Shown: piece by piece, positions 1,930 through 30,503 of the stretch
How positions within the stretch are numbered: the first letter of the stretch is position 1
How the letters are laid out: each line of letters begins with the position of its first letter
Virus record (IMG/VR): IMGVR_UViG_3300021067_000006
Span: 26,838 to 90,837 of that record
DNA from: a virus
Reading direction: 5' to 3' (one strand)
Length of the DNA stretch: 64,000 nt
Position numbers and translations under genes: made by a program
Notes under the pieces: model-generated
What the model saw: only the letters and a program-made list of their open reading frames with translations
Told to the model about the DNA's origin: nothing
Database searches by the model: none

Positions 1930-2159
1930 GGCAGGCCCTTCTCGGCAGCCCACCATCCTTCAACGACGAGCGTCCCCTCGGCGTGCTCGCCGGCGTCGAA
2001 CACCTCGCTGTCGTCGTGCACCAGGCTCTTTGGGATCCACCGCTCGACGCGATCGAGCTCGTCGTCCGTCGGCTGCAGCTCAATCAACAACGCGCGGTCC
2101 GTCTCCCGCAGGCAGCGCGCGCGGCAGTGGTAGAGCTCGGCCTCGTCGTCGCGGCTCAC
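1926..2159 (-). CDS. Small phage protein with WIPKS motif (77 aa)
   Basis: RETDRALLIE...WIPKS...VEGWWAAEKGL; GTGA coupling. Confidence 0.7.
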   Translation of the reverse strand: MSRDDEAELYHCRARCLRETDRALLIELQPTDDELDRVERWIPKSLVHDDSEVFDAGEHAEGTLVVEGWWAAEKGLP

Positions 2160-2677
2160 AGCGACCGCCACTTCTGCGAGAAGCGCCGTCGGAGCTCGGC
2201 GAGACTCTCGGCGCGCTCGCCCGGCCACGCCTCACGCGGCGTCGTCGCAGCGTCCACGCCCGCGGGCAGCTCGCCGAACACGCGCGAGAACAGCTCCTCG
2301 GCGAGGCCCGCAAGCGCCGCGGTCGGAGGCGCAACGAGCGAGCCGTCGAGCAGCGCGCAGAGCACCTCGGCGTCGGTCGCCGGGCGCGTGTCCTCGCCGC
2401 GCTGCACGCGCTCGATGAGCTCGCAGCAGTGCGCCCGGTACGTGCTGAGCGCCTTGCCGAGCAGCGGCCGCGTCGGCTGCAAAAGCGCGAACGTCGCGCG
2501 CTGCTCTCCCGTCTCGGCGAGCACCGTCTCGGCCACGGCCATGCACTCGAACGTGAAGCGCACGGCCTCGCAGGCGCTCGCGCCGAGATGGGCGAACAGC
2601 GCGTCGAGCACCACGCCACGCATGCCCCGGTCGGGGCGGGATATGCAATCGCGCGATTCCAAAGACCGGGTTGTCAC
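2156..2677 (-). CDS. Hypothetical protein (start could be ATG 2623)
   Basis: Coupled overlaps at both ends; palindrome copy near the 5' end. Confidence 0.65.
   Translation of the reverse strand: MTTRSLESRDCISRPDRGMRGVVLDALFAHLGASACEAVRFTFECMAVAETVLAETGEQRATFALLQPTRPLLGKALSTYRAHCCELIERVQRGEDTRPATDAEVLCALLDGSLVAPPTAALAGLAEELFSRVFGELPAGVDAATTPREAWPGERAESLAELRRRFSQKWRSL
2642..2663. promoter_or_regulatory. 22-bp palindrome copy 1 (TATGCAATCGCGCGATTCCAAA)
   Basis: Matches a family of 8 dispersed copies. Confidence 0.75.
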
Positions 2678-2937
2678 GGCGTCGTCCCTTCCTCATCGGC
2701 CACTTCACACGCGCGTAGAACGCTGGCTTTCCACTGCTCCATCGCGAACAGCAGCACGGGCAGGTCCTGCGAACCGCCCCGCTGCCAGTACGTTCGGCGG
2801 CCACCGTCGGCGAGCACAACCACCGAGTGAAACTTGCCGGCCTTCGCCTCGGCGAGCGCGCTCTCGAGCACGCTCACGACCTCAGCCACGATGGCCGGCG
2901 GTACCGCCGGCGCGAGCTGTATCGGCTTCTCGCTCAC
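2674..2937 (-). CDS. Hypothetical protein (87 aa)
   Basis: GTG-SEKPIQLAP; GTGA overlaps. Confidence 0.65.
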   Translation of the reverse strand: MSEKPIQLAPAVPPAIVAEVVSVLESALAEAKAGKFHSVVVLADGGRRTYWQRGGSQDLPVLLFAMEQWKASVLRACEVADEEGTTP

Positions 2938-4118
2938 GGCAGGCTCACCGTCTTCAGCTTGAGCAGCTGCGCGTGCTTCGTCACGCGCGCACGGAAGGCG
3001 TCGACGTGCTCCGCCTTGCACGTACAGCGACCCTCGGGCGAGCCGAGCCGACCGCACGGGCACGGCAGCGTCGACGCGATGATGCGCGCCGGGCGCGCCG
3101 GCAGCCGCACCTCGACGCCGTCGGCACGCCGATACTTGACGTGCCCCTGCTCGAGCACGCGCGCCATTGCCTCGATCGACGACGTTCGCCAGTCGCCGAG
3201 CTCATCGAGCACGAGCACGCCGTGCGTCGCCATCGACACCTCACCGAACGACCAGATCGTCGGCGTCAGCTCGAACCCGATGAGCCCCCGCTCGCTCACC
3301 GAGCAGTGTGGCGCGCGCGCCGGCCGCACCGCGCCCGCCGGCGCCATCCCGATTCCAGCGGCCGAGCGGATGGCGAGCACCTCGAGCGCCTGCAACGGCC
3401 CGAGCGCGCCGAGCTCGTACAGCGCCGCGCGCGCCACCGAGCTCACGCGGTACTCGTTCGACACGTAGCTCGGGCTGATGAGCAGCACGTCGCCCGTGCG
3501 CGGCACCTGCTCGGGCAGCACAGGCACCGGCATCGTCGACCACTGCCGCTCGTTGTCGAGCTCGGGTGTGAGGGTCGTGCGTGCGCCCAACGTGAGCCCG
3601 TGTCCCGGCCGCCCCGTGCGCGCGAACTCGAGCACGGGCCTGAGATGCCGCGCGCCGTAGACCGTGACGTTCTCGGCGAGGCTCGCCTCGGGCAAGTCCT
3701 CATCGCACACCACGACTGTGCGGCAGGCGCCCGTGTCGGCGATGGCCTTCACGCGGGCAAGGCAACCGCGTACCGGCCGGAGCTCGCCGCCGAGCCCGAG
3801 CGACGCGACGCAACCGATCTCGAGCATCGCGCTCGCATCGTCGAACGTGGCATCCGCCACTGCGAGCGCGAGGTCAAAGCCGTAATCGAGACCTTTCACG
3901 TCGAACGCGACCGGCGGCTTGCCGAGCACGGCGGTATCGCTCGCGACTAGCGCCGCGCTCACACGAACCGTCGCCTCGCGCACGCGCATCGAATCGCCGC
4001 CGTAGTTGGGGAACGCGTACCGATTGAGCAGCAGAGCGTCATTCGCGGCAGCGCTCGCGGTGATGGTGAGATGCTCGCCTTCGACGCCAACGAGCCGCGC
4101 GGTGTGAACGAGAGTCAT
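2934..4118 (-). CDS. ComM/YifB (Mg-chelatase-related) homolog with degenerate Walker A and C-terminal truncation
   Basis: VREATVRV, FDLALAVA, SLGLGGELRPVRG, RAPHCS, GEVSMATHGVLVLDEL, PCPCG..CTC motifs; no GxxGxGK(T/S). Confidence 0.85.
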   Translation of the reverse strand: MTLVHTARLVGVEGEHLTITASAAANDALLLNRYAFPNYGGDSMRVREATVRVSAALVASDTAVLGKPPVAFDVKGLDYGFDLALAVADATFDDASAMLEIGCVASLGLGGELRPVRGCLARVKAIADTGACRTVVVCDEDLPEASLAENVTVYGARHLRPVLEFARTGRPGHGLTLGARTTLTPELDNERQWSTMPVPVLPEQVPRTGDVLLISPSYVSNEYRVSSVARAALYELGALGPLQALEVLAIRSAAGIGMAPAGAVRPARAPHCSVSERGLIGFELTPTIWSFGEVSMATHGVLVLDELGDWRTSSIEAMARVLEQGHVKYRRADGVEVRLPARPARIIASTLPCPCGRLGSPEGRCTCKAEHVDAFRARVTKHAQLLKLKTVSLP

Positions 4119-4150
4119 GGTTCGGAGGATGCCGCACGCGCAGCGGCAGC

Positions 4151-4561: not shown

Positions 4562-4743
4562 GACTTCACCAGCACGAGCCCGATGATTCGCTCGCCGTCC
4601 ATGAGCTCGGGTGTCCCGTGCGCGCTGTGTTCAGCGTAGAAAGCCCGCATCTCTTTCGCCGTGACGAGCGGATCGTCGCTCGCACGCACCGCAAGTGTCG
4701 CGCCGCACGTCGAGCATCGCAGGCCTGTGAGTCTCACGCTCAT
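4558..4743 (-). CDS. Small Zn-finger-like protein (61 aa)
   Basis: CSTC...H..H; coupled overlaps. Confidence 0.55.
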   Translation of the reverse strand: MSVRLTGLRCSTCGATLAVRASDDPLVTAKEMRAFYAEHSAHGTPELMDGERIIGLVLVKS

Positions 4744-6563
4744 GACTTTTCCACCACGGCCCGACGGAGCAGCACACGCGACTCCTCAGGCCCTTTCCAG
4801 AAAGGCTGAATCCAGATCGTTTTGCGCAGGCTGCGCCGCGGCCCGTGCACCTGCTGTCGCCAGTGCCCGCGCACCAGGAACTGCACCTTCGGGCTTCCGC
4901 CGCCCGCGCCGCGCCGGCGCCCCGATAGGTGCTCGGTGAGCTCACTGCGCAGGTCGAGCTCGAGCGGCTTGCTCAAGACGAACCGCGCCTGCTCGAGCTC
5001 GGGCGGACCTGAGCGCCCCTTCGCCGAGCGGCTCGTTCCCTCGCTCGCGCCGCGCTCGCGCCGGAACTCGTCGGGCTCACTGAGCGCGAGGCAGCAGCCG
5101 CGCACGAGCGCGCGGATCGTCGGCAAGAGGCGACCGCCGTAAGCACCGACCGCATCGGTCACATCGTCGATGTGCAGCACGGTGCCTTGCTCGAGCACGA
5201 GCGCGACCGGCTCGGCGCCGACGCACCACACGCGGCGTGTCGTGTTGCGCCCGAGCTCGGGGGTATCAAGCAGCCCGTCCGGCAGCGTGAGCGACCACGC
5301 CTTCCATGGCGCGCCGACCTCGACCGTATCGGGCACGTCCGTGAGCGCGAGCGCGGCAGCGAGCCGGTGCCCGACCTCGAGCCGCGCGAAGCTGCTGTCG
5401 AGCCACAGCTCGACGAAGTCGAGCATCGCAGTGACGGCCTTGGGTGCGAGCTCGATGTCGGGCTCGCCGTAGAAGAGCACCTTGCCAAGATGCCTGAGCT
5501 TCGCGAGCGCGGGTGAGCGGTTCGCCTCGCGCTCGAGCACACGCTGCAGGAGCTCGTGCCCGCCCTCGCCGAGCTCTTTCTCGAGGCGCCACAGCGGCCG
5601 GAACACGTACGCCGTCGCCATCGCCGTCGCCTCGACGTTGCTCGGCGTCTTCGCGTTCGGCGGGATCGGCGCGCGTGCCGCGGCCTGCCGCGCGTTGGCC
5701 ATCGCCTCGGCGATGCGCGCGAGCATCGCCGGATGCTCGCGCTCGAGCTCACGAAGTTTGCCGATCGACGGCCGGAGCTCGCCAAACTCGGCCTCGATGA
5801 GCACCTCATCGAGCAGCAGGTCGACGATGCGATCGAACGTGTTCGCGAGATCCATCGCGACGCGATCGAGAGGCGGCAGCTTCGCGCGCACGCGCCTGAG
5901 GATCTCTTTCCTCAGCGCGACTGTGTGGTCGACCGACGTGCGGCCACGCACGGGCCTGAGCTTCGGCATCTCCTCGAGCACCTCGAGCGTCGACTCGCGC
6001 ACGGCTTCGACGATGTCGCGCTCGACGTCGGCAGCGAACGCGTCGGCGATCTGCTCGGGCTTGCCGGCGGAGCCTGGCTGCATCGTCGCCGCCATGGTGA
6101 CCGCGGCACCGATGCGCACATCTTCGCTCTGCATCGCCGGCTGCTTGGCGATGAGCTCGTCGATGGCGTCGCTGTGCAGCGCCGGCTGCTCGGCGACGAT
6201 CGCCTCGAGGTCATCGGTGCGCAGCGTGAGCGCGGCGTGTCCGCTTCGCGTGAGCGCGACGTTGAGAGGGTCCGGCGCGCGCTCGGCCTGGTACCCGTCG
6301 CGCTGCAGCTTCCCCGCCATGTACGCCTGCGACATCGTGCGGCTGCCCGGGGGCGCATCCGCATGCGCAAGCGCGCGATAGCGGCTCGTGGCCTTGGTGA
6401 TGGTGCGAGGCGTGGCCGTGCTCAGCGTCGCCGCCGTCGCCGTCGAGTAGGGAATCGCTGCCGCTGCGGCGCCTCGCTCCGCGTTCGCCCGCTCTGCCTT
6501 CACCGCCTCGCCCGACCGCTCCGCTGCAGCGAGCCGGCGCCGCAGCCTCTTGCCCTTGCTCAT
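4740..6563 (-). CDS. Large hypothetical phage protein (607 aa) with C-terminal VRGHWR motif
   Basis: Start MSKGK 7 nt after CATCAT; C-terminal FLVRGHWRQQVHGP...IWIQPFWKG. Confidence 0.75.
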   Translation of the reverse strand: MSKGKRLRRRLAAAERSGEAVKAERANAERGAAAAAIPYSTATAATLSTATPRTITKATSRYRALAHADAPPGSRTMSQAYMAGKLQRDGYQAERAPDPLNVALTRSGHAALTLRTDDLEAIVAEQPALHSDAIDELIAKQPAMQSEDVRIGAAVTMAATMQPGSAGKPEQIADAFAADVERDIVEAVRESTLEVLEEMPKLRPVRGRTSVDHTVALRKEILRRVRAKLPPLDRVAMDLANTFDRIVDLLLDEVLIEAEFGELRPSIGKLRELEREHPAMLARIAEAMANARQAAARAPIPPNAKTPSNVEATAMATAYVFRPLWRLEKELGEGGHELLQRVLEREANRSPALAKLRHLGKVLFYGEPDIELAPKAVTAMLDFVELWLDSSFARLEVGHRLAAALALTDVPDTVEVGAPWKAWSLTLPDGLLDTPELGRNTTRRVWCVGAEPVALVLEQGTVLHIDDVTDAVGAYGGRLLPTIRALVRGCCLALSEPDEFRRERGASEGTSRSAKGRSGPPELEQARFVLSKPLELDLRSELTEHLSGRRRGAGGGSPKVQFLVRGHWRQQVHGPRRSLRKTIWIQPFWKGPEESRVLLRRAVVEKS

Positions 6564-7087
6564 GTCCCCGATGATGCGCGCCAACGGAGCGAGCGCACCT
6601 CGGGAAGCCGGATGTCTTCGGGCACGCGCCACAGGCCGAGCTGTCCCCTGCACGGCACTGGCTCGGGCAGCGGCGCGTAATCGAGCACCGAGTAACCGTG
6701 CTGCCCGGCGATGCGCCATCGGTCCTGCGGGCCACGCACGACGCCGTCGTACACGCCGAGGGGTATGCCGAACCGCAGCAGCCCGACGATCGAACCGTAC
6801 GGCGGAGCGACGCGGCCCTTGATCAACGCGCCGCAGTCGTACTCGGGCACAAGCTCGGTAGGCACGCCCGCGCGCGCCGCGAGCTCGCAGTACGCCTTGA
6901 ACGCAGCGCGCGATGGGCGCTGCGAGACGTGCATCCAAACGACTCGATGCTCGAGCGGCAGCGCGCGCTTGCGGTTCTCCACAAGCTTCAGGTGCTCGGG
7001 CGGCAGCGCCGCCATGAACAGCGGCACAGGCCACTGAAACGACAGCGCCCTCGTCGCCGAGCGAAACCAATCCTTCGACAGGGTCAT
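6560..7087 (-). CDS. ASCH-domain protein (175 aa)
   Basis: ALSFQWP, KLVENR, GSIVG, PLPEPVPCRGQLGLW motifs. Confidence 0.8.
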   Translation of the reverse strand: MTLSKDWFRSATRALSFQWPVPLFMAALPPEHLKLVENRKRALPLEHRVVWMHVSQRPSRAAFKAYCELAARAGVPTELVPEYDCGALIKGRVAPPYGSIVGLLRFGIPLGVYDGVVRGPQDRWRIAGQHGYSVLDYAPLPEPVPCRGQLGLWRVPEDIRLPEVRSLRWRASSGT

Positions 7088-25530: not shown

Positions 25531-26108
25531 GGCTTTTTACCGACGCGCCTGAGCAGCACCGACGGCGCAATCTGCACGAGCTGCGACGCGAGCAGCACGT
25601 GCAGATCGACACCGTGCACGACGAGCTCACCGACCATCGACGGTCCGATGCGCAGCCCGCGCAGCAGCGCCGCCTCGATGATGACGTGCCACGACATCCG
25701 GTTGCCGCGGAAGAACAGCAACGGCTTGAGCCCATCGAAGCGCGCGGCCGCTTCGCACTGACGCCACCATCGCAGGACGGGCGAGCGCGGATCGCCGGCG
25801 AGGAACAGCTCGTACGACCACGCGCCCGCGCGCCGCACTCTGAACGGCTTGCCGTTGATCTTTTCTCGCACGGTCATCGCCTGCCGACGGAACTTCACCT
25901 CGACCGAAAACGGGAACAGCGTGCACGTCTCGGGGTCGACCATCACATCGCCACGCGCCTTGAACCCCGCCGTTTTCGAACTCGCCCACCCGCCCGATCG
26001 CGGCGTTCGAACGAACGTCGCATCGGGCTCGAGCTGCCGCCACCACGGCTCAAGAATCCTCACGACCTCGAGCTCACCGAACGCGCCCTTTTTGATCAGC
26101 GTCGCCAT
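25524..26108 (-). CDS. Hjc-like PD-(D/E)XK Holliday junction resolvase
   Basis: KGAFGELEV, SGG, GDV, SVEVK, WWRQC, PLLFF. Confidence 0.8.
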   Translation of the reverse strand: MATLIKKGAFGELEVVRILEPWWRQLEPDATFVRTPRSGGWASSKTAGFKARGDVMVDPETCTLFPFSVEVKFRRQAMTVREKINGKPFRVRRAGAWSYELFLAGDPRSPVLRWWRQCEAAARFDGLKPLLFFRGNRMSWHVIIEAALLRGLRIGPSMVGELVVHGVDLHVLLASQLVQIAPSVLLRRVGKKPW

Positions 26109-28024
26109 CACGCGACCTCGACGCGCGACCACGGCCCCGACGCACGCACGACAATGCGCCTCGGCACGCTCTCGAGGAACGCCCGATCGTGCGCCGACAC
26201 GATGGCCTGCTCGAACGTGCCGAGCAGCATGCGCTGTATCGCCGCCGACACCGACGCGCGGTGCGCACGATCCATCTGCGCGAGCGGTTCGTCGAGCGCG
26301 GCCACCGACCACCGCGCCGAGCGCCGCGCGCGCAGCCACCGGAACGCGGCGGTGCGCAGCGCGAGCCCGCCCAGGTCGGCGGCCGCGCCGTCGCTCTGAT
26401 GCGACAGCCGGAACCGCACGCGGTTCGACACCTTGGGCCCGCGCGTCGCACCGCAGCGCGCGCACTGCCTCACCCGCGTCGACGCGGGGAACGGCGAGCC
26501 GCAGCCCGAGCAGCGGACGGCGAGCTCTTTCGTCTCCCGTCCCCAGCTGAGCGAGACCGCCAAGTCGACCCCCGCCTCGGCGAGCACGCCGTTCGCCGCC
26601 CGCACGACGCCGCCCACGGCCTGCTCGGCCGCGGCACGCTGCGCTCCCTCCGGCCCGAGAATAGCCAACGCCGCGCGCCGGGCGGCCAGAGAACGCGCGA
26701 GCTCGGCGAGCCGGGCGTCGGCGTCGGCGACGCGGGCGAGCGCAGCCTCGGCCTCACCGAGCGCCGCCCGCGCGCGTTCGACGGCCGACCGATCCACAAG
26801 CGGCGGCTGCTCGACCGGGGGCAGCACGTCGGGCAGCTGCTCGGAATCGATCCACGCCAGCCGCGCCGCGGCTTCCACAGCCGCATCGAGCCGCGCGCTG
26901 GCCTGGTCAAGCCGGCGCTGCTGCGCCCGCGCTTCATCGAACGAACACTCAACCAGCCCGCCCCGCGTCTCGGCTTCTTTCCGTGCGGCTTCCGCCTTCG
27001 CGAGCGCGGCACGGTTCTCCGCGGTGCGCGCGTTGATCTGCTCCCGCGCCGGACAGTCGATACCGGCCACGGGACAACGCCCATCGAACTGCCCGCTCAC
27101 CAGCTTGCGCGCGCGCTCAACCTCACGCCGCGCCTCGTCGCGCGCGTGCAGCTCCCGCTCGCGCTTCGCGACAATCGCCTCGACGTCGGGAACCGGAACG
27201 GCCTTGAGCTCGGCGACCTCACCGGCGAGCGCTTCGACCTGCTCGAGCAGACGCCGCCGCTCGTCGCGAGTTTTCAGCTTGAGCGCGAGCTCGGCATGAG
27301 CGCGCAGCTTCTCGCTCGCCGAGTTTGCCGCAGCGTGGTCAGCCTCGAATCGCGCCTGCGCCGCAACGAGCTCAGCACGACGCCGCTCGACCTCAGCCTC
27401 GGTGCCGCCCGCCTCGAGCCCAGCGACGCGCGCCGCGATGCAGCGACCGTGTTCGGTCATCAGCTCGTTGAGCTCGTCGCTCACGGCATCCGCCGCCTCG
27501 GCCAGCTTGCCCGTCTGCAGCCATCGCTCAAACGCTTCAGTCGACGCCGTGCTACCCGCCGACACGAGCCCCGGCAGCGCGCGCTGCTCGGCGATGCAGG
27601 TGTCGAGCATCTCGACCACCTCGAACCCAAGGTAACCAGGCAGCGCACGCTCAGCCTCATCGCCGCGCAGCACCGTGCCGTCGGGCAGCGCGAACTCGAG
27701 TGATTCGCTCGCGCCGAGCGGCTTCAGTCGCGAGATGAACGCGCCGTCGCTGAGCTCGATGTCGACACCGACCTGCTCGCTACGCACGCCCGTCGCACGG
27801 TCGTACGAAACAAGGTCCTCGACGGAGTCGACAGTGCGCGGTCGCTTGCCGTCGAGCGCCCAGCGAATCGCGCGCAGCAAGCTCGTCTTGCCGAGGTAGT
27901 TGCTGCGCGCCGCGTCCTGCTCGTCCTCGGCTGTGAGCGCGTACACGCCCGGGCCGAGCTCGAGCTCGTGCACGCCGCGGAACCGCTGCCAGTCGATGAG
28001 CCGCAGCCCGACGATGTGCGTCAC
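26108..28024 (-). CDS. Rad50/SbcC-like SMC ATPase
   Basis: SNYLGKTS, Q-loop, coiled coils, CPV hook region, LDEP, AH. Confidence 0.9.
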   Translation of the reverse strand: MTHIVGLRLIDWQRFRGVHELELGPGVYALTAEDEQDAARSNYLGKTSLLRAIRWALDGKRPRTVDSVEDLVSYDRATGVRSEQVGVDIELSDGAFISRLKPLGASESLEFALPDGTVLRGDEAERALPGYLGFEVVEMLDTCIAEQRALPGLVSAGSTASTEAFERWLQTGKLAEAADAVSDELNELMTEHGRCIAARVAGLEAGGTEAEVERRRAELVAAQARFEADHAAANSASEKLRAHAELALKLKTRDERRRLLEQVEALAGEVAELKAVPVPDVEAIVAKRERELHARDEARREVERARKLVSGQFDGRCPVAGIDCPAREQINARTAENRAALAKAEAARKEAETRGGLVECSFDEARAQQRRLDQASARLDAAVEAAARLAWIDSEQLPDVLPPVEQPPLVDRSAVERARAALGEAEAALARVADADARLAELARSLAARRAALAILGPEGAQRAAAEQAVGGVVRAANGVLAEAGVDLAVSLSWGRETKELAVRCSGCGSPFPASTRVRQCARCGATRGPKVSNRVRFRLSHQSDGAAADLGGLALRTAAFRWLRARRSARWSVAALDEPLAQMDRAHRASVSAAIQRMLLGTFEQAIVSAHDRAFLESVPRRIVVRASGPWSRVEVA

Positions 28025-28137
28025 TCGCCGCGCCTCTTTCGCGTCAACAGGTTGATCGCAATCACGCAGCCGAGAATGCCGCCGACAACGATCGCGATGT
28101 AGACCCACGCCGCGACAGTCTCGGCCTGCGATGCCAT
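28021..28137 (-). CDS. Small single-TM protein (38 aa)
   Basis: WVYIAIVVGGILGCVIAINLL then RKRR; TATGAT-N6-ATG. Confidence 0.6.
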   Translation of the reverse strand: MASQAETVAAWVYIAIVVGGILGCVIAINLLTRKRRGE

Positions 28138-28591: not shown

Positions 28592-29322
28592 CAGCCCCCC
28601 CGCTCGGTGTCGACTTCCAAGATGCCCGGGACATTCTCGCACTCGTCGCGCGTAAACCTGCAGACGCTTCCCGGGATCTCGACGCCGCGATACGTCTGCC
28701 GCCGATGGTAATGCGCGTTGAACAGCAGCGCGTTCGGAAACAACCGACGCACCGTGTCGATGGGAAAGAACACGTCGCGCCCGCGCGCCATATCCTTCGT
28801 TTCCGAACCCGTTGCGATGCCCTCGAGCATCAGATGCCCGGCCACCGCAGCGACCTTTGCACCGAGCCCGACGCGCGTGAGCTCCGCCGCTAGCTCGCAC
28901 ACCTCAGCCTTGGGGTCGTACGCGTGCGACGTCGGAACGTACGGCAGCAGCACGACAGCCTCGCCCGCGCCGACCTGGACATAGCGCGGCCGCTTCACGA
29001 GCGTGACGCCCGCAACGAACGCGAGCGGATCGAGCGTCGTCGTCCCGTACCCATCTTCGAGCACGTCGTGATTGCCGGGAATCGCGATCGTGTCGATGCC
29101 CTCGACGTCGAGCTTGCTTGCGAACTCGGCGAACAGCGTAATGCACCGCACAAGGTTCTCGCTCTCCGGATCGGCAAGGTCGCCGAGGAACAGAACCTCA
29201 TCGACCCGTCGCTTGAGCGCACGTTCGAACACGAGCTCAAGCGCGCGCGCGACATCGTCGAACCGCGAGAAACCCGCAGTCGACTTGTCCGGATGCAGGT
29301 CGCCGACGATCAACGACTTCAC
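28591..29322 (-). CDS. Mre11/SbcD metallophosphoesterase nuclease domain
   Basis: GDLH, GD, GNHD, GH, AHYH motifs; near sbcC. Confidence 0.9.
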   Translation of the reverse strand: MKSLIVGDLHPDKSTAGFSRFDDVARALELVFERALKRRVDEVLFLGDLADPESENLVRCITLFAEFASKLDVEGIDTIAIPGNHDVLEDGYGTTTLDPLAFVAGVTLVKRPRYVQVGAGEAVVLLPYVPTSHAYDPKAEVCELAAELTRVGLGAKVAAVAGHLMLEGIATGSETKDMARGRDVFFPIDTVRRLFPNALLFNAHYHRRQTYRGVEIPGSVCRFTRDECENVPGILEVDTERGG

Positions 29323-30503
29323 TTCGCACCCGCGCGGCATTCGGCTTCGACTCGCGCGAGCAGCTCAACGTCGGCACGCAGCTTCCGCAGCGCCGCACGT
29401 TCGCCCTGCCCGAGCTTCGCGCCGCTCGCGCTGTAATGCGAACCGTTCTGCTTGGCGACTCCGAGCTCGAGCGCAAGCTCGAGCACGTCGCGCGCACGAT
29501 CGAAACCTTCGGGCGCATCGACGCCGTTGCTCGTGTGAAACCACGCAAGCGGAGTAATCTCGCGCTTGCCCGCGATCTTCGTTTTCAGCACGCCGACGCG
29601 ATGCCGCTCGCCGATGAACACGCGCTCGCCATCCTCCGTATCTTCGACGATCGACGAACGCTCGACGCGCAGCCGTAGCGACGGGCCGAACTTCATATTT
29701 TCCCCGCCCATGAGCTCGACCACGTCGCGCGAGTACAGCCCTTCCCCCTTCGTCACTTTCTCGCGGCCGATGAGCACCGCCGCCGTGCGCGTGCGCGCGA
29801 GCAACGGCAGCAGCTCATCGATCCACGCCGCATTGTAAGCGGCCTTGAGCTGCGCGAGTCGACGGCCTGCACCGTCCTCTTTCTTCGGCGGCGCACGTCG
29901 ACCGCGTTTCTTCGCTTCCTCAGCGTCGGCCTGCTCTTGCGCCTTCGCAGCCTTCGCGGCCTTCACCATCTCATCGAAGGCGTCTTTCGGTACGAGCGCG
30001 CGGATGCTGTCGATCACGACGATGCCCGTCGTGTCGGGCGGGATGCGCCCCTTGTCGCGCGCAGTACCGATTCGGTTCGCCCAATCTTTCACACCCTCGC
30101 GCGTCGCTTCGTAGTCGGTCACCGGTATCGCCGAGAACGACGGGTAATCGTACGCCTCGCCGACGAGCAGACGCGCGTACGGCTCAGGCGTGCTGTGCTC
30201 GGCGTCGGCGAACGCGGCGAAGTGACCGCGCTCGAGAAACGAACGCAGCAGGCCGAGCTGCAGCGTCGACTTACCTTCGTTGCTCGGGCCGTGGATCACG
30301 GTCAGCCGCGCGATGGGAAAGCCGCCAACCCCGATGCGATGGTCGAGCTGCGGGAATATCGTCGGCACGGCTTGAACGCGGCCGATGACTTCGCGCGCGG
30401 GACGAAACGCCGAGAACTCGCCGGCCACTGCCGACAACGCTTCGATGCGCTCACGATTACTCGCAGCTTGCGCCGCGATGCTCGCACGGGGTTGGCGGCT
30501 CAT
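29319..30503 (-). CDS. RecA/UvsX-like recombinase
   Basis: GVGGFPIARLTVIHGPSNEGKST, DAEH, IDSI, GGENMKF, KTK. Confidence 0.9.
   Translation of the reverse strand: MSRQPRASIAAQAASNRERIEALSAVAGEFSAFRPAREVIGRVQAVPTIFPQLDHRIGVGGFPIARLTVIHGPSNEGKSTLQLGLLRSFLERGHFAAFADAEHSTPEPYARLLVGEAYDYPSFSAIPVTDYEATREGVKDWANRIGTARDKGRIPPDTTGIVVIDSIRALVPKDAFDEMVKAAKAAKAQEQADAEEAKKRGRRAPPKKEDGAGRRLAQLKAAYNAAWIDELLPLLARTRTAAVLIGREKVTKGEGLYSRDVVELMGGENMKFGPSLRLRVERSSIVEDTEDGERVFIGERHRVGVLKTKIAGKREITPLAWFHTSNGVDAPEGFDRARDVLELALELGVAKQNGSHYSASGAKLGQGERAALRKLRADVELLARVEAECRAGAK

Follow-up and report, generated by a model that had tools for sequence, protein, structure and literature searches.

A lidless ComM/YifB-like protein of an uncultured soil phage, very probably a pseudo-ATPase

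ComM has only recently been understood, both structurally and as the branch-migration motor of natural transformation, and the ComM/YifB family also includes the ComM of V. cholerae (Nero et al. 2018). Rings of ComM assemble only with ATP and DNA, the interface between their Lon-like domains is weak and non-specific, and a Lon-like domain serves as the ring scaffold in both ComM and RadA (PMC11612176). ComM is recruited by DprA via the C-terminal domain (PMC12012524). The present study concerns a ComM/YifB-like gene (P0001) in a 64,000-nucleotide stretch of IMG/VR virus record IMGVR_UViG_3300021067_000006, corresponding to bases 26838-90837 of the 90,837-bp record; this whole stretch is referred to as the window, and coordinates are those of the window. 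Judged from its sequence and a structure model, the encoded ComM-like protein is very probably a maintained pseudo-ATPase. The favoured reading as a whole, given about an even chance, is that this pseudo-ATPase belongs to a phage-borne lidless branch of ComM/YifB, is nucleotide-independent, and binds DNA or recombination intermediates; its DNA-binding part is less certain than its pseudo-ATPase part. The gene and the parts of its product are as follows.

2934..4118, minus strand: ComM/YifB-like pseudo-ATPase gene P0001, 394 aa, stop codon included
3609..4118, minus strand: Lon-protease-like N domain, residues 1-170
3494..3608, minus strand: interdomain linker, residues 171-208
2937..3493, minus strand: AAA+ alpha/beta core, residues 209-394, lidless, ending after the last core strand
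3438..3476, minus strand: Walker A position, residues 215-227 (SPSYVSNEYRVSS), standing in for GxxGxGK(T/S)
3201..3218, minus strand: Walker B VLVLDE, residues 301-306
3018..3062, minus strand: C4 zinc motif, residues 353-367 (CPCGRLGSPEGRCTC)

Fold and ATPase motifs compared with ComM

Sequence profiles and the model together confirmed the ComM/YifB-like fold and family identity predicted for this protein. The Pfam family Mg_chelatase (PF01078) matched with an E value of 1.5e-24 and 87 bits (cut-off 20.3) over positions 42-186 of its 207 only, so that the Walker A part of the profile is unmatched, and the match to the ChlI N domain (PF13541; E 2.4e-4) remained under the gathering score. Alignment to TIGR00368, proposed with the original prediction, showed the protein to be related (102.7 bits) but under the NCBIfam cut-off of 362.4, so the whole-protein score was not reached. 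PHROGs held no family for it (best E 0.06), and the only solved relative found by sequence was the ComM of L. pneumophila (8RXD; E 2.9e-22). An AlphaFold2 model built on 42 relatives reached a pLDDT of 90.5 and a pTM of 0.89, with a pLDDT of about 65 in the linker, and ComM chains (8rxt and 8rxd) ranked first among its Foldseek matches (TM by query 0.70-0.72). The N half matched the ComM Lon-domain hexamer 8rxs (E 3e-8, TM by target 0.75) and, further, Lon proteases and the protease-like domain of RadA. The two halves differ in isoelectric point, which is 9.1 for the AAA+ half and 5.2 for the N domain.

At the level of residues, the protein was read by alignment to 8RXD, with the roles of residues taken from PMC11612176. 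RAPH, GEVS.A..GVLVLDE and CPCG..CTC are all present, Walker B is kept in the hhhhDE form of ComM, and the four zinc-motif cysteines (C353, C355, C365 and C367), sensor 3 (R316 of ComM, R320 here) and the arginine of the PS1-beta hairpin (R328 of ComM, R331 here) are retained. This alignment and the fold matches bear out the earlier description of a kept Lon-like N domain, RAPH, GEVS.A..GVL.LDE and zinc motif. In contrast, Walker A is lost: residues 218-225 of ComM (GAPGSGKT) align with PSYVSNEY, which places a Glu at the piston Lys and a Tyr at the Thr. No alternative frame contained a hidden P-loop or lid, and the P-loop has indeed been replaced, as had been proposed. The sensor-1 Asn is also lost (N346 of ComM to Leu351; AAMNPCPCG versus ASTLPCPCG), the H2i loop is remodelled from GGGNPPKPG in ComM to GFELTPTIWSFG, three residues longer and hydrophobic, and the second DNA contact of ComM (R366, R369 and K373) reads H, A and R, with two of the three basic residues changed.

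The protein ends at residue 394, 27 residues past the last Cys. Its proposed termination after the zinc motif with loss of the GPLLDRID segment held for the motif, which is gone, and for the lid, which is missing; the strand itself, however, remains as HAQLLKLKTV and is modelled at residues 389-392, with the D-R-I-D residues replaced. Absence of the lid (Mg_chelatase_C) removes R463 of ComM and the surface that contacts DprA, and PF13335 had no match anywhere in the phage, nor in the ORFs downstream of the ComM-like gene. The protein is not classed as ComM because it fails five defining features of that family, namely Walker A, the sensor-1 Asn, GPLLDRID, the Mg_chelatase_C lid and the TIGR00368 score cut-off.

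With the P-loop, the sensor-1 Asn, LLDRID and the R463-bearing lid gone, ComM-like binding or hydrolysis of ATP would not be expected, and the original prediction of an ATPase-dead protein is upheld as far as sequence and model reach (PMC11612176). A protein that makes no ComM-like use of ATP would not translocate on DNA, and one that has no lid would not be recruited by DprA through it. Activity as a non-canonical NTPase, in which the Walker B Asp-Glu and the sensor-3 Arg would work with substitute phosphate contacts, is very unlikely: the conserved Asp-Glu and R320 and the intact AAA+ core fold are in keeping with it, but the glycine-rich loop is gone, a Glu occupies the P-loop Lys position, and the sensor-1 Asn, LLDRID and the lid arginine are all missing. 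We know of no AAA+ precedent for activity when the P-loop, the sensor-1 Asn, LLDRID and the lid arginine are lacking together.

A lidless branch and the evidence on selection

Relatives were collected by an exhaustive HMMER search of 1.84 billion representatives. The closest of them, P0026 (376 aa), shares 41% identity, the 90% cluster of the ComM-like gene holds identical copies only, and identity to full-length ComM-type matches does not exceed about 37%. About 50 of the best 150 matches are short (345-425 aa) and end soon past the zinc motif. A midpoint-rooted FastTree of 170 rows, with long branches and with rows chosen by similarity to the Walker-A-less query, separated with 96% SH-like support 94 canonical rows, which are long, have Walker A and mostly have LLDRID, from a divergent clade of 76 rows, 43 of them short and most without LLDRID. 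The ComM-like protein falls in the divergent clade with P0026 and P0153 as its nearest rows, and its terminal branch is the longest among all 170 rows (1.72 changes per site versus a median of 0.78). GxxxxGK[ST] is missing from 16 of the 76 divergent rows versus 1 of the 94 canonical rows (Fisher p 1e-5), the sole canonical case being an N-terminal fragment; in many of the 16, the motif is altered by K-to-R or T-to-V/I/M/L substitutions but not lost outright. That the clade repeatedly shed catalytic residues suggests a function independent of ATP turnover.

A pattern scan of IMG/VR yielded 105 confirmed stretches. Canonical copies with LLDRID often lie at contig ends beside serine recombinases, the classic arrangement left by prophage insertion into comM, and divergent-type copies are complete ORFs within contigs of 60-300 kb, several of them high in GC. 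Short forms, ending 4-40 residues past the last strand, were found in L007, L009, L020, L023, L026, L029, L039, L042, L048, L076 and L080, and most short viral forms have an intact P-loop. Because the short form is common to dozens of complete but distant ORFs, a large share of which lie in viral contigs, lidlessness is a family trait, and the missing C-terminal region is not the private loss for which it had been taken. Complete erasure of the P-loop, on the other hand, is particular to the ComM-like gene and a few others. These comparisons point to an unnamed, largely phage-borne lidless ComM-like branch of which the protein is a member. No paper on this branch, or on any phage-encoded dead or lidless ComM, was found within the literature searched. 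A scan of viral contigs with P0026 gave no match, and a scan of metagenome contigs gave only relatives of at most 43% identity, mostly on short contigs.

No second Mg_chelatase-type gene was found in five viral records whose copies are degenerate; two of these records are complete and have terminal repeats. At 8 of the 78 viral loci the phage ComM-like gene is accompanied by a RadC-like JAB gene, which lies directly upstream, overlaps it or sits in its vicinity, with actual overlap of the two genes in L048. In 14 low-GC viral loci, a conserved ORF of about 110-130 aa and unknown function stands directly beside the ComM-like gene. Coordinates within these loci are the following.

L048:185-835, L004:1451-2164, L040:9328-9765, L026:9048-9695, L029:12460-12903, plus three further loci: RadC-like JAB genes
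L061:10737-11090, L056:10754-11146, L053:8997-9380: examples of the ORF of about 110-130 aa

Retention was scored over the 76 columns that show at least 80% conservation in a set of 41 relatives. The ComM-like protein keeps 59 of these, the lowest number of 42 members (family median 93%), and its losses differ between domains: retention in the N domain is 22 of 24, the same as the family median (0.92), whereas in the AAA+ core it is 37 of 52, again the lowest of the 42, or 36 of 46 when Walker A columns are excluded. Most of the 17 lost columns lie in the P-loop or the H2i loop, or flank RAPH, SLAH or Walker B. Such domain-specific loss on the longest branch of the tree would not be expected from uniform neutral decay. 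Pairs with degenerate Walker A from other phages (L043/L053 and L060/L062) gave dN/dS values of 0.21-0.23, and pairs with intact Walker A gave 0.11-0.21. The neutral decay of phage homologues that the original prediction had named as a way to be wrong was therefore not found for the class, which is under purifying selection, a result that holds for the class and not for the ComM-like gene itself. One of these pairs, L060:9659-10708 and L062:9611-10753, is low in GC, has 80% protein identity and a dN/dS of 0.21, and combines Walker A sequences GKNTKGRD and GQPSKGRD with a Walker B acid that is degenerate too (VLFLKD and VLFLKE).

Gene integrity, phage context and possible roles

The frame at 2934-4118 is open throughout, with no internal stop or frameshift in its 394 codons. 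Its codon-position GC is 0.71/0.52/0.88, the peak of third-position GC (GC3) stays in this frame from 4120 to 2920 in a sliding frame plot, and the codons of the degenerate P-loop have a GC3 of 0.95-1.0. The ATG at 4118 aligns with the invariant M1 column of the 42 relatives. The motif GCATC(A/C)T-N7-(A/G/T)TG occurs in 12 copies in the window, on the coding strand only, versus 0.41 expected by shuffling, and is possibly a -10-like element of leaderless messages; since the ComM-like gene bears it, its start signal is one that recurs in the phage. An intact ORF of 394 aa with its own CATCCT start, as first described, is thus confirmed by the open frame, the GC3 profile, the alignment of M1 and the recurrence of the motif. 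The start signals, the ORFs downstream and the recombination genes of the phage are located as follows.

4116..4132, minus strand: start signal GCATCCT-N7-ATG of the ComM-like gene, one of the 12 motif copies
1419, 1700, 4116, 6561, 7827, 13040, 15991, 19033, 20232, 35554, 41016 and 45193, minus strand: GCATC(A/C)T-N7-start sites
2674..2937, minus strand: 87-aa ORF with a GTG start overlapping the stop of the ComM-like gene (GTGA)
2156..2677, minus strand: 173-aa ORF without a family match, its start overlapping the 87-aa ORF's stop
29319-30503, minus strand: RecA-family recombinase gene (PF00154, 44.6 bits)
26108-28108: SbcC-like gene

Because stops and starts overlap down to the 173-aa ORF, the ComM-like gene heads a run of genes of unknown function. 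The 87-aa ORF is probably translationally coupled to it, has a coding-type GC3 of 0.82 and lies below usual size cut-offs; it matches phrog_796, a family of unknown function, with an E value of 2.8e-5, its nearest Atlas clusters are unnamed and come from phages and Candidatus Binatota, and a word-indexed protein search returned no relatives. Directly upstream of the ComM-like gene, a 776-aa protein (4740-7070, minus strand) gave no match in Pfam; phrog_15934 aligns with the 60 residues at its C-terminus (E 2e-14), and a weak Atlas lead points to AcrVA2-like clusters, with a score of 0.83 that falls short of the 0.9 mark. Neighbours of the ComM-like gene matched only families of unknown function in Pfam and PHROGs, PADLOC gave no match for the ComM-like protein or its neighbours, and in 80 viral loci the vicinity of the ComM-like genes contained no homologue of the ORFs that lie within 10 kb of this one.

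These features bear on the possibility, considered rather unlikely, that the gene is a decaying relic of a once-active phage ComM-like gene, open only because stops are rare at 70% GC. The length of the terminal branch, the low retention of conserved columns and the status of the gene as an orphan with no close relatives would be expected of a relic, and the opposite strand holds an even longer ORF (1983-3950, 655 aa), which is a spurious shadow of the high GC content. However, the losses cluster in the nucleotide site and the H2i loop while the N domain, RAPH, Walker B, the four Cys and the PS1-beta Arg are kept, and the 394 codons contain neither frameshift nor stop. The recurrent start motif and the stop/start overlap with the 87-aa ORF have been retained, the structure model is confident throughout, and purifying selection acts on the dead relatives from other phages. 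A weak further point is that an identical 151-nt contig for window 3737-3887 occurs in a soil metatranscriptome run, a weak hint of expression for which DNA carry-over is possible; the other pieces of that RNA run are short and unlike the window.

The record is a genuine genome of an uncultured tailed phage from soil, with a CheckV completeness of 98%, a GC content of about 68% and nearly all genes on the minus strand. Its gene set includes a family-B DNA polymerase (PolB), a DnaB-like helicase, two further helicases, a baseplate wedge subunit and the SbcC-like and RecA-like genes, and this agrees with the earlier assignment of the ComM-like gene to a phage. The PolB has less than 30% identity to that of any listed phage, and the baseplate protein had no match. 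Two soil metagenome runs carry the same DNA with zero differences and are a possible source of the record. Neither DprA nor RadC was found in the phage, and PF01078 matched only once in the 90.8-kb genome, so that there is no second Mg_chelatase gene. Neither tyrosine nor serine recombinases were found in the near-complete genome, which makes a temperate lifestyle by integration unlikely.

This last result bears on two further explanations. In the first, the ORF would be a comM fragment carried at an attachment site of the phage, either left behind by a comM-integrating element or kept by it as a repair piece. While comM is a classic integration hotspot and several IMG/VR matches are canonical comM pieces at contig ends by serine recombinases, the present gene is a full ORF in the middle of a near-complete genome that has no recombinase, carries the phage's own start motif, sits in a phage clade and has at most about 37% identity to full-length ComM-type matches. 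The attachment-site reading is thus extremely improbable, and close to refuted.

The second explanation is the dominant-negative role put forward in the original prediction, in which a dead subunit would join or cap the growing host ComM hexamer via its Lon-like and AAA+ faces and, having no P-loop or lid arginine to contribute, would block ring closure or ATP turnover and with it branch migration. Mechanistically the model is neat, since the ATP site between subunits is disabled on both faces while the scaffold domain is kept at family-typical retention. The sensor-3 Arg, which reaches into the neighbour's site, is conserved as well (PMC11612176), the phage has no live paralogue with which the protein could pair, and mobile elements profit from comM inactivation (PMC11441513). 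Nevertheless, a phage with no integrase of either type is probably virulent and has no obvious gain from blocking transformation, nor obvious curing to prevent. In addition, the low identity to full-length ComM-type proteins and membership in an old divergent clade argue against a recent copy of a host gene, the ComM hexamer needs ATP and DNA and has only a weak, non-specific Lon-Lon interface (PMC11612176), and a protein lacking the DprA-recruiting lid would not be brought to the recombination site in that way (PMC12012524). Taken together, these points make poisoning of host ComM an unlikely, though coherent, account. A broader proposal, to which only a low likelihood is attached, is that lidless ComM-like proteins form a class of phage-specific non-motor effectors that act on recombination intermediates or on host rings of the ComM or RadA type, blocking or redirecting branch migration, with the ComM-like gene as its nucleotide-independent end point. 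If true, this would add a new way in which phages control recombination or transformation in their hosts.

Under the favoured reading of a maintained, nucleotide-independent pseudo-ATPase, contact with DNA or recombination intermediates could be made via the pore hairpin (PS1-beta), the zinc knuckle and the basic AAA+ half, with the protein acting as a static cap or clamp and not as a motor, in the phage's own DNA metabolism or in early host takeover. The RecA-like and SbcC-like genes and the several helicases encoded by the phage speak for this reading, and a repurposed scaffold, also raised in the original prediction, is compatible with all observations. Several points weigh on the other side. 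The remodelled H2i loop and the changed second contact suggest that DNA binding may be altered too. The gene is surrounded by small unknown genes and is not part of the module for replication and recombination; the phage's own recombination set is about 25 kb away, and no neighbour recurs beside its relatives. Long ORFs survive easily at 70% GC, and the intact frame is therefore weak evidence, and the contrast in retention between the two domains is no more than suggestive (Fisher p 0.07). A closest relative at 41% identity places the gene itself beyond dN/dS analysis, and the clade rests on the midpoint-rooted, long-branched FastTree described above, with rows picked via a P-loop-less query.

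If the phage branch drops the lid and LLDRID and repeatedly loses the P-loop, the ComM scaffold would have a second, motor-free use. Should that use be to interfere with recombination or transformation in the host, it would parallel, at the level of a protein, the well-known insertion of mobile elements into comM; should it be phage recombination, a new accessory to phage RecA-type systems would have been found. In either case, the branch is a source of natural separation-of-function variants with which ring formation, DNA binding and recruitment could be assigned to parts of ComM.

Comparison with known systems

The closest described system is ComM/YifB (TIGR00368/COG0606; L. pneumophila ComM, PDB 8RXD/8RXT), with which the protein shares the Lon-like N domain, the MCM-type AAA+ core, the embedded C4 zinc motif and the order of domains, as well as RAPH, GE..A..G.L.LDE, the sensor-3 Arg and the PS1-beta Arg. 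It differs from ComM in lacking Walker A, the sensor-1 Asn, LLDRID and the Mg_chelatase_C lid with R463 and the DprA surface, in its longer, hydrophobic H2i loop (by three residues), in being encoded by a phage and, as we infer, in the exclusion of motor function. Within the same superclade, the N-terminal AAA+ of the Mg chelatase subunit BchD/ChlD is likewise degenerate and ATPase-inactive, and it stacks on or pairs with an active ring. However, BchD pairs with a co-encoded active BchI, whereas a second gene of the Mg_chelatase type is absent from this phage and from the five others in which degenerate copies were examined.

RadA/Sms also combines a Lon-like ring scaffold with a zinc finger and acts at recombination intermediates made by RecA (PMC11612176), and its Lon domain is among the fold matches of the ComM-like protein; in contrast, RadA is an active motor with a RecA-type ATPase core and the opposite order of domains. 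Elements that disrupt comM, such as AbaR islands and serine-recombinase prophages, represent another route to interfere with ComM function (PMC11441513), but these break the host gene, whereas the phage has no recombinase and carries a divergent coding copy. The nearest counterparts are the other members of the lidless phage clade (P0026, P0153 and the ORFs in L007, L009, L020, L026, L029, L039, L042 and L048), which similarly end a few residues past the last core strand and have no LLDRID. Most of them keep GxxGxGKT, while the ComM-like gene, which stands with no RadC-like neighbour, has the most erased P-loop and the most divergent AAA+ core of this clade.

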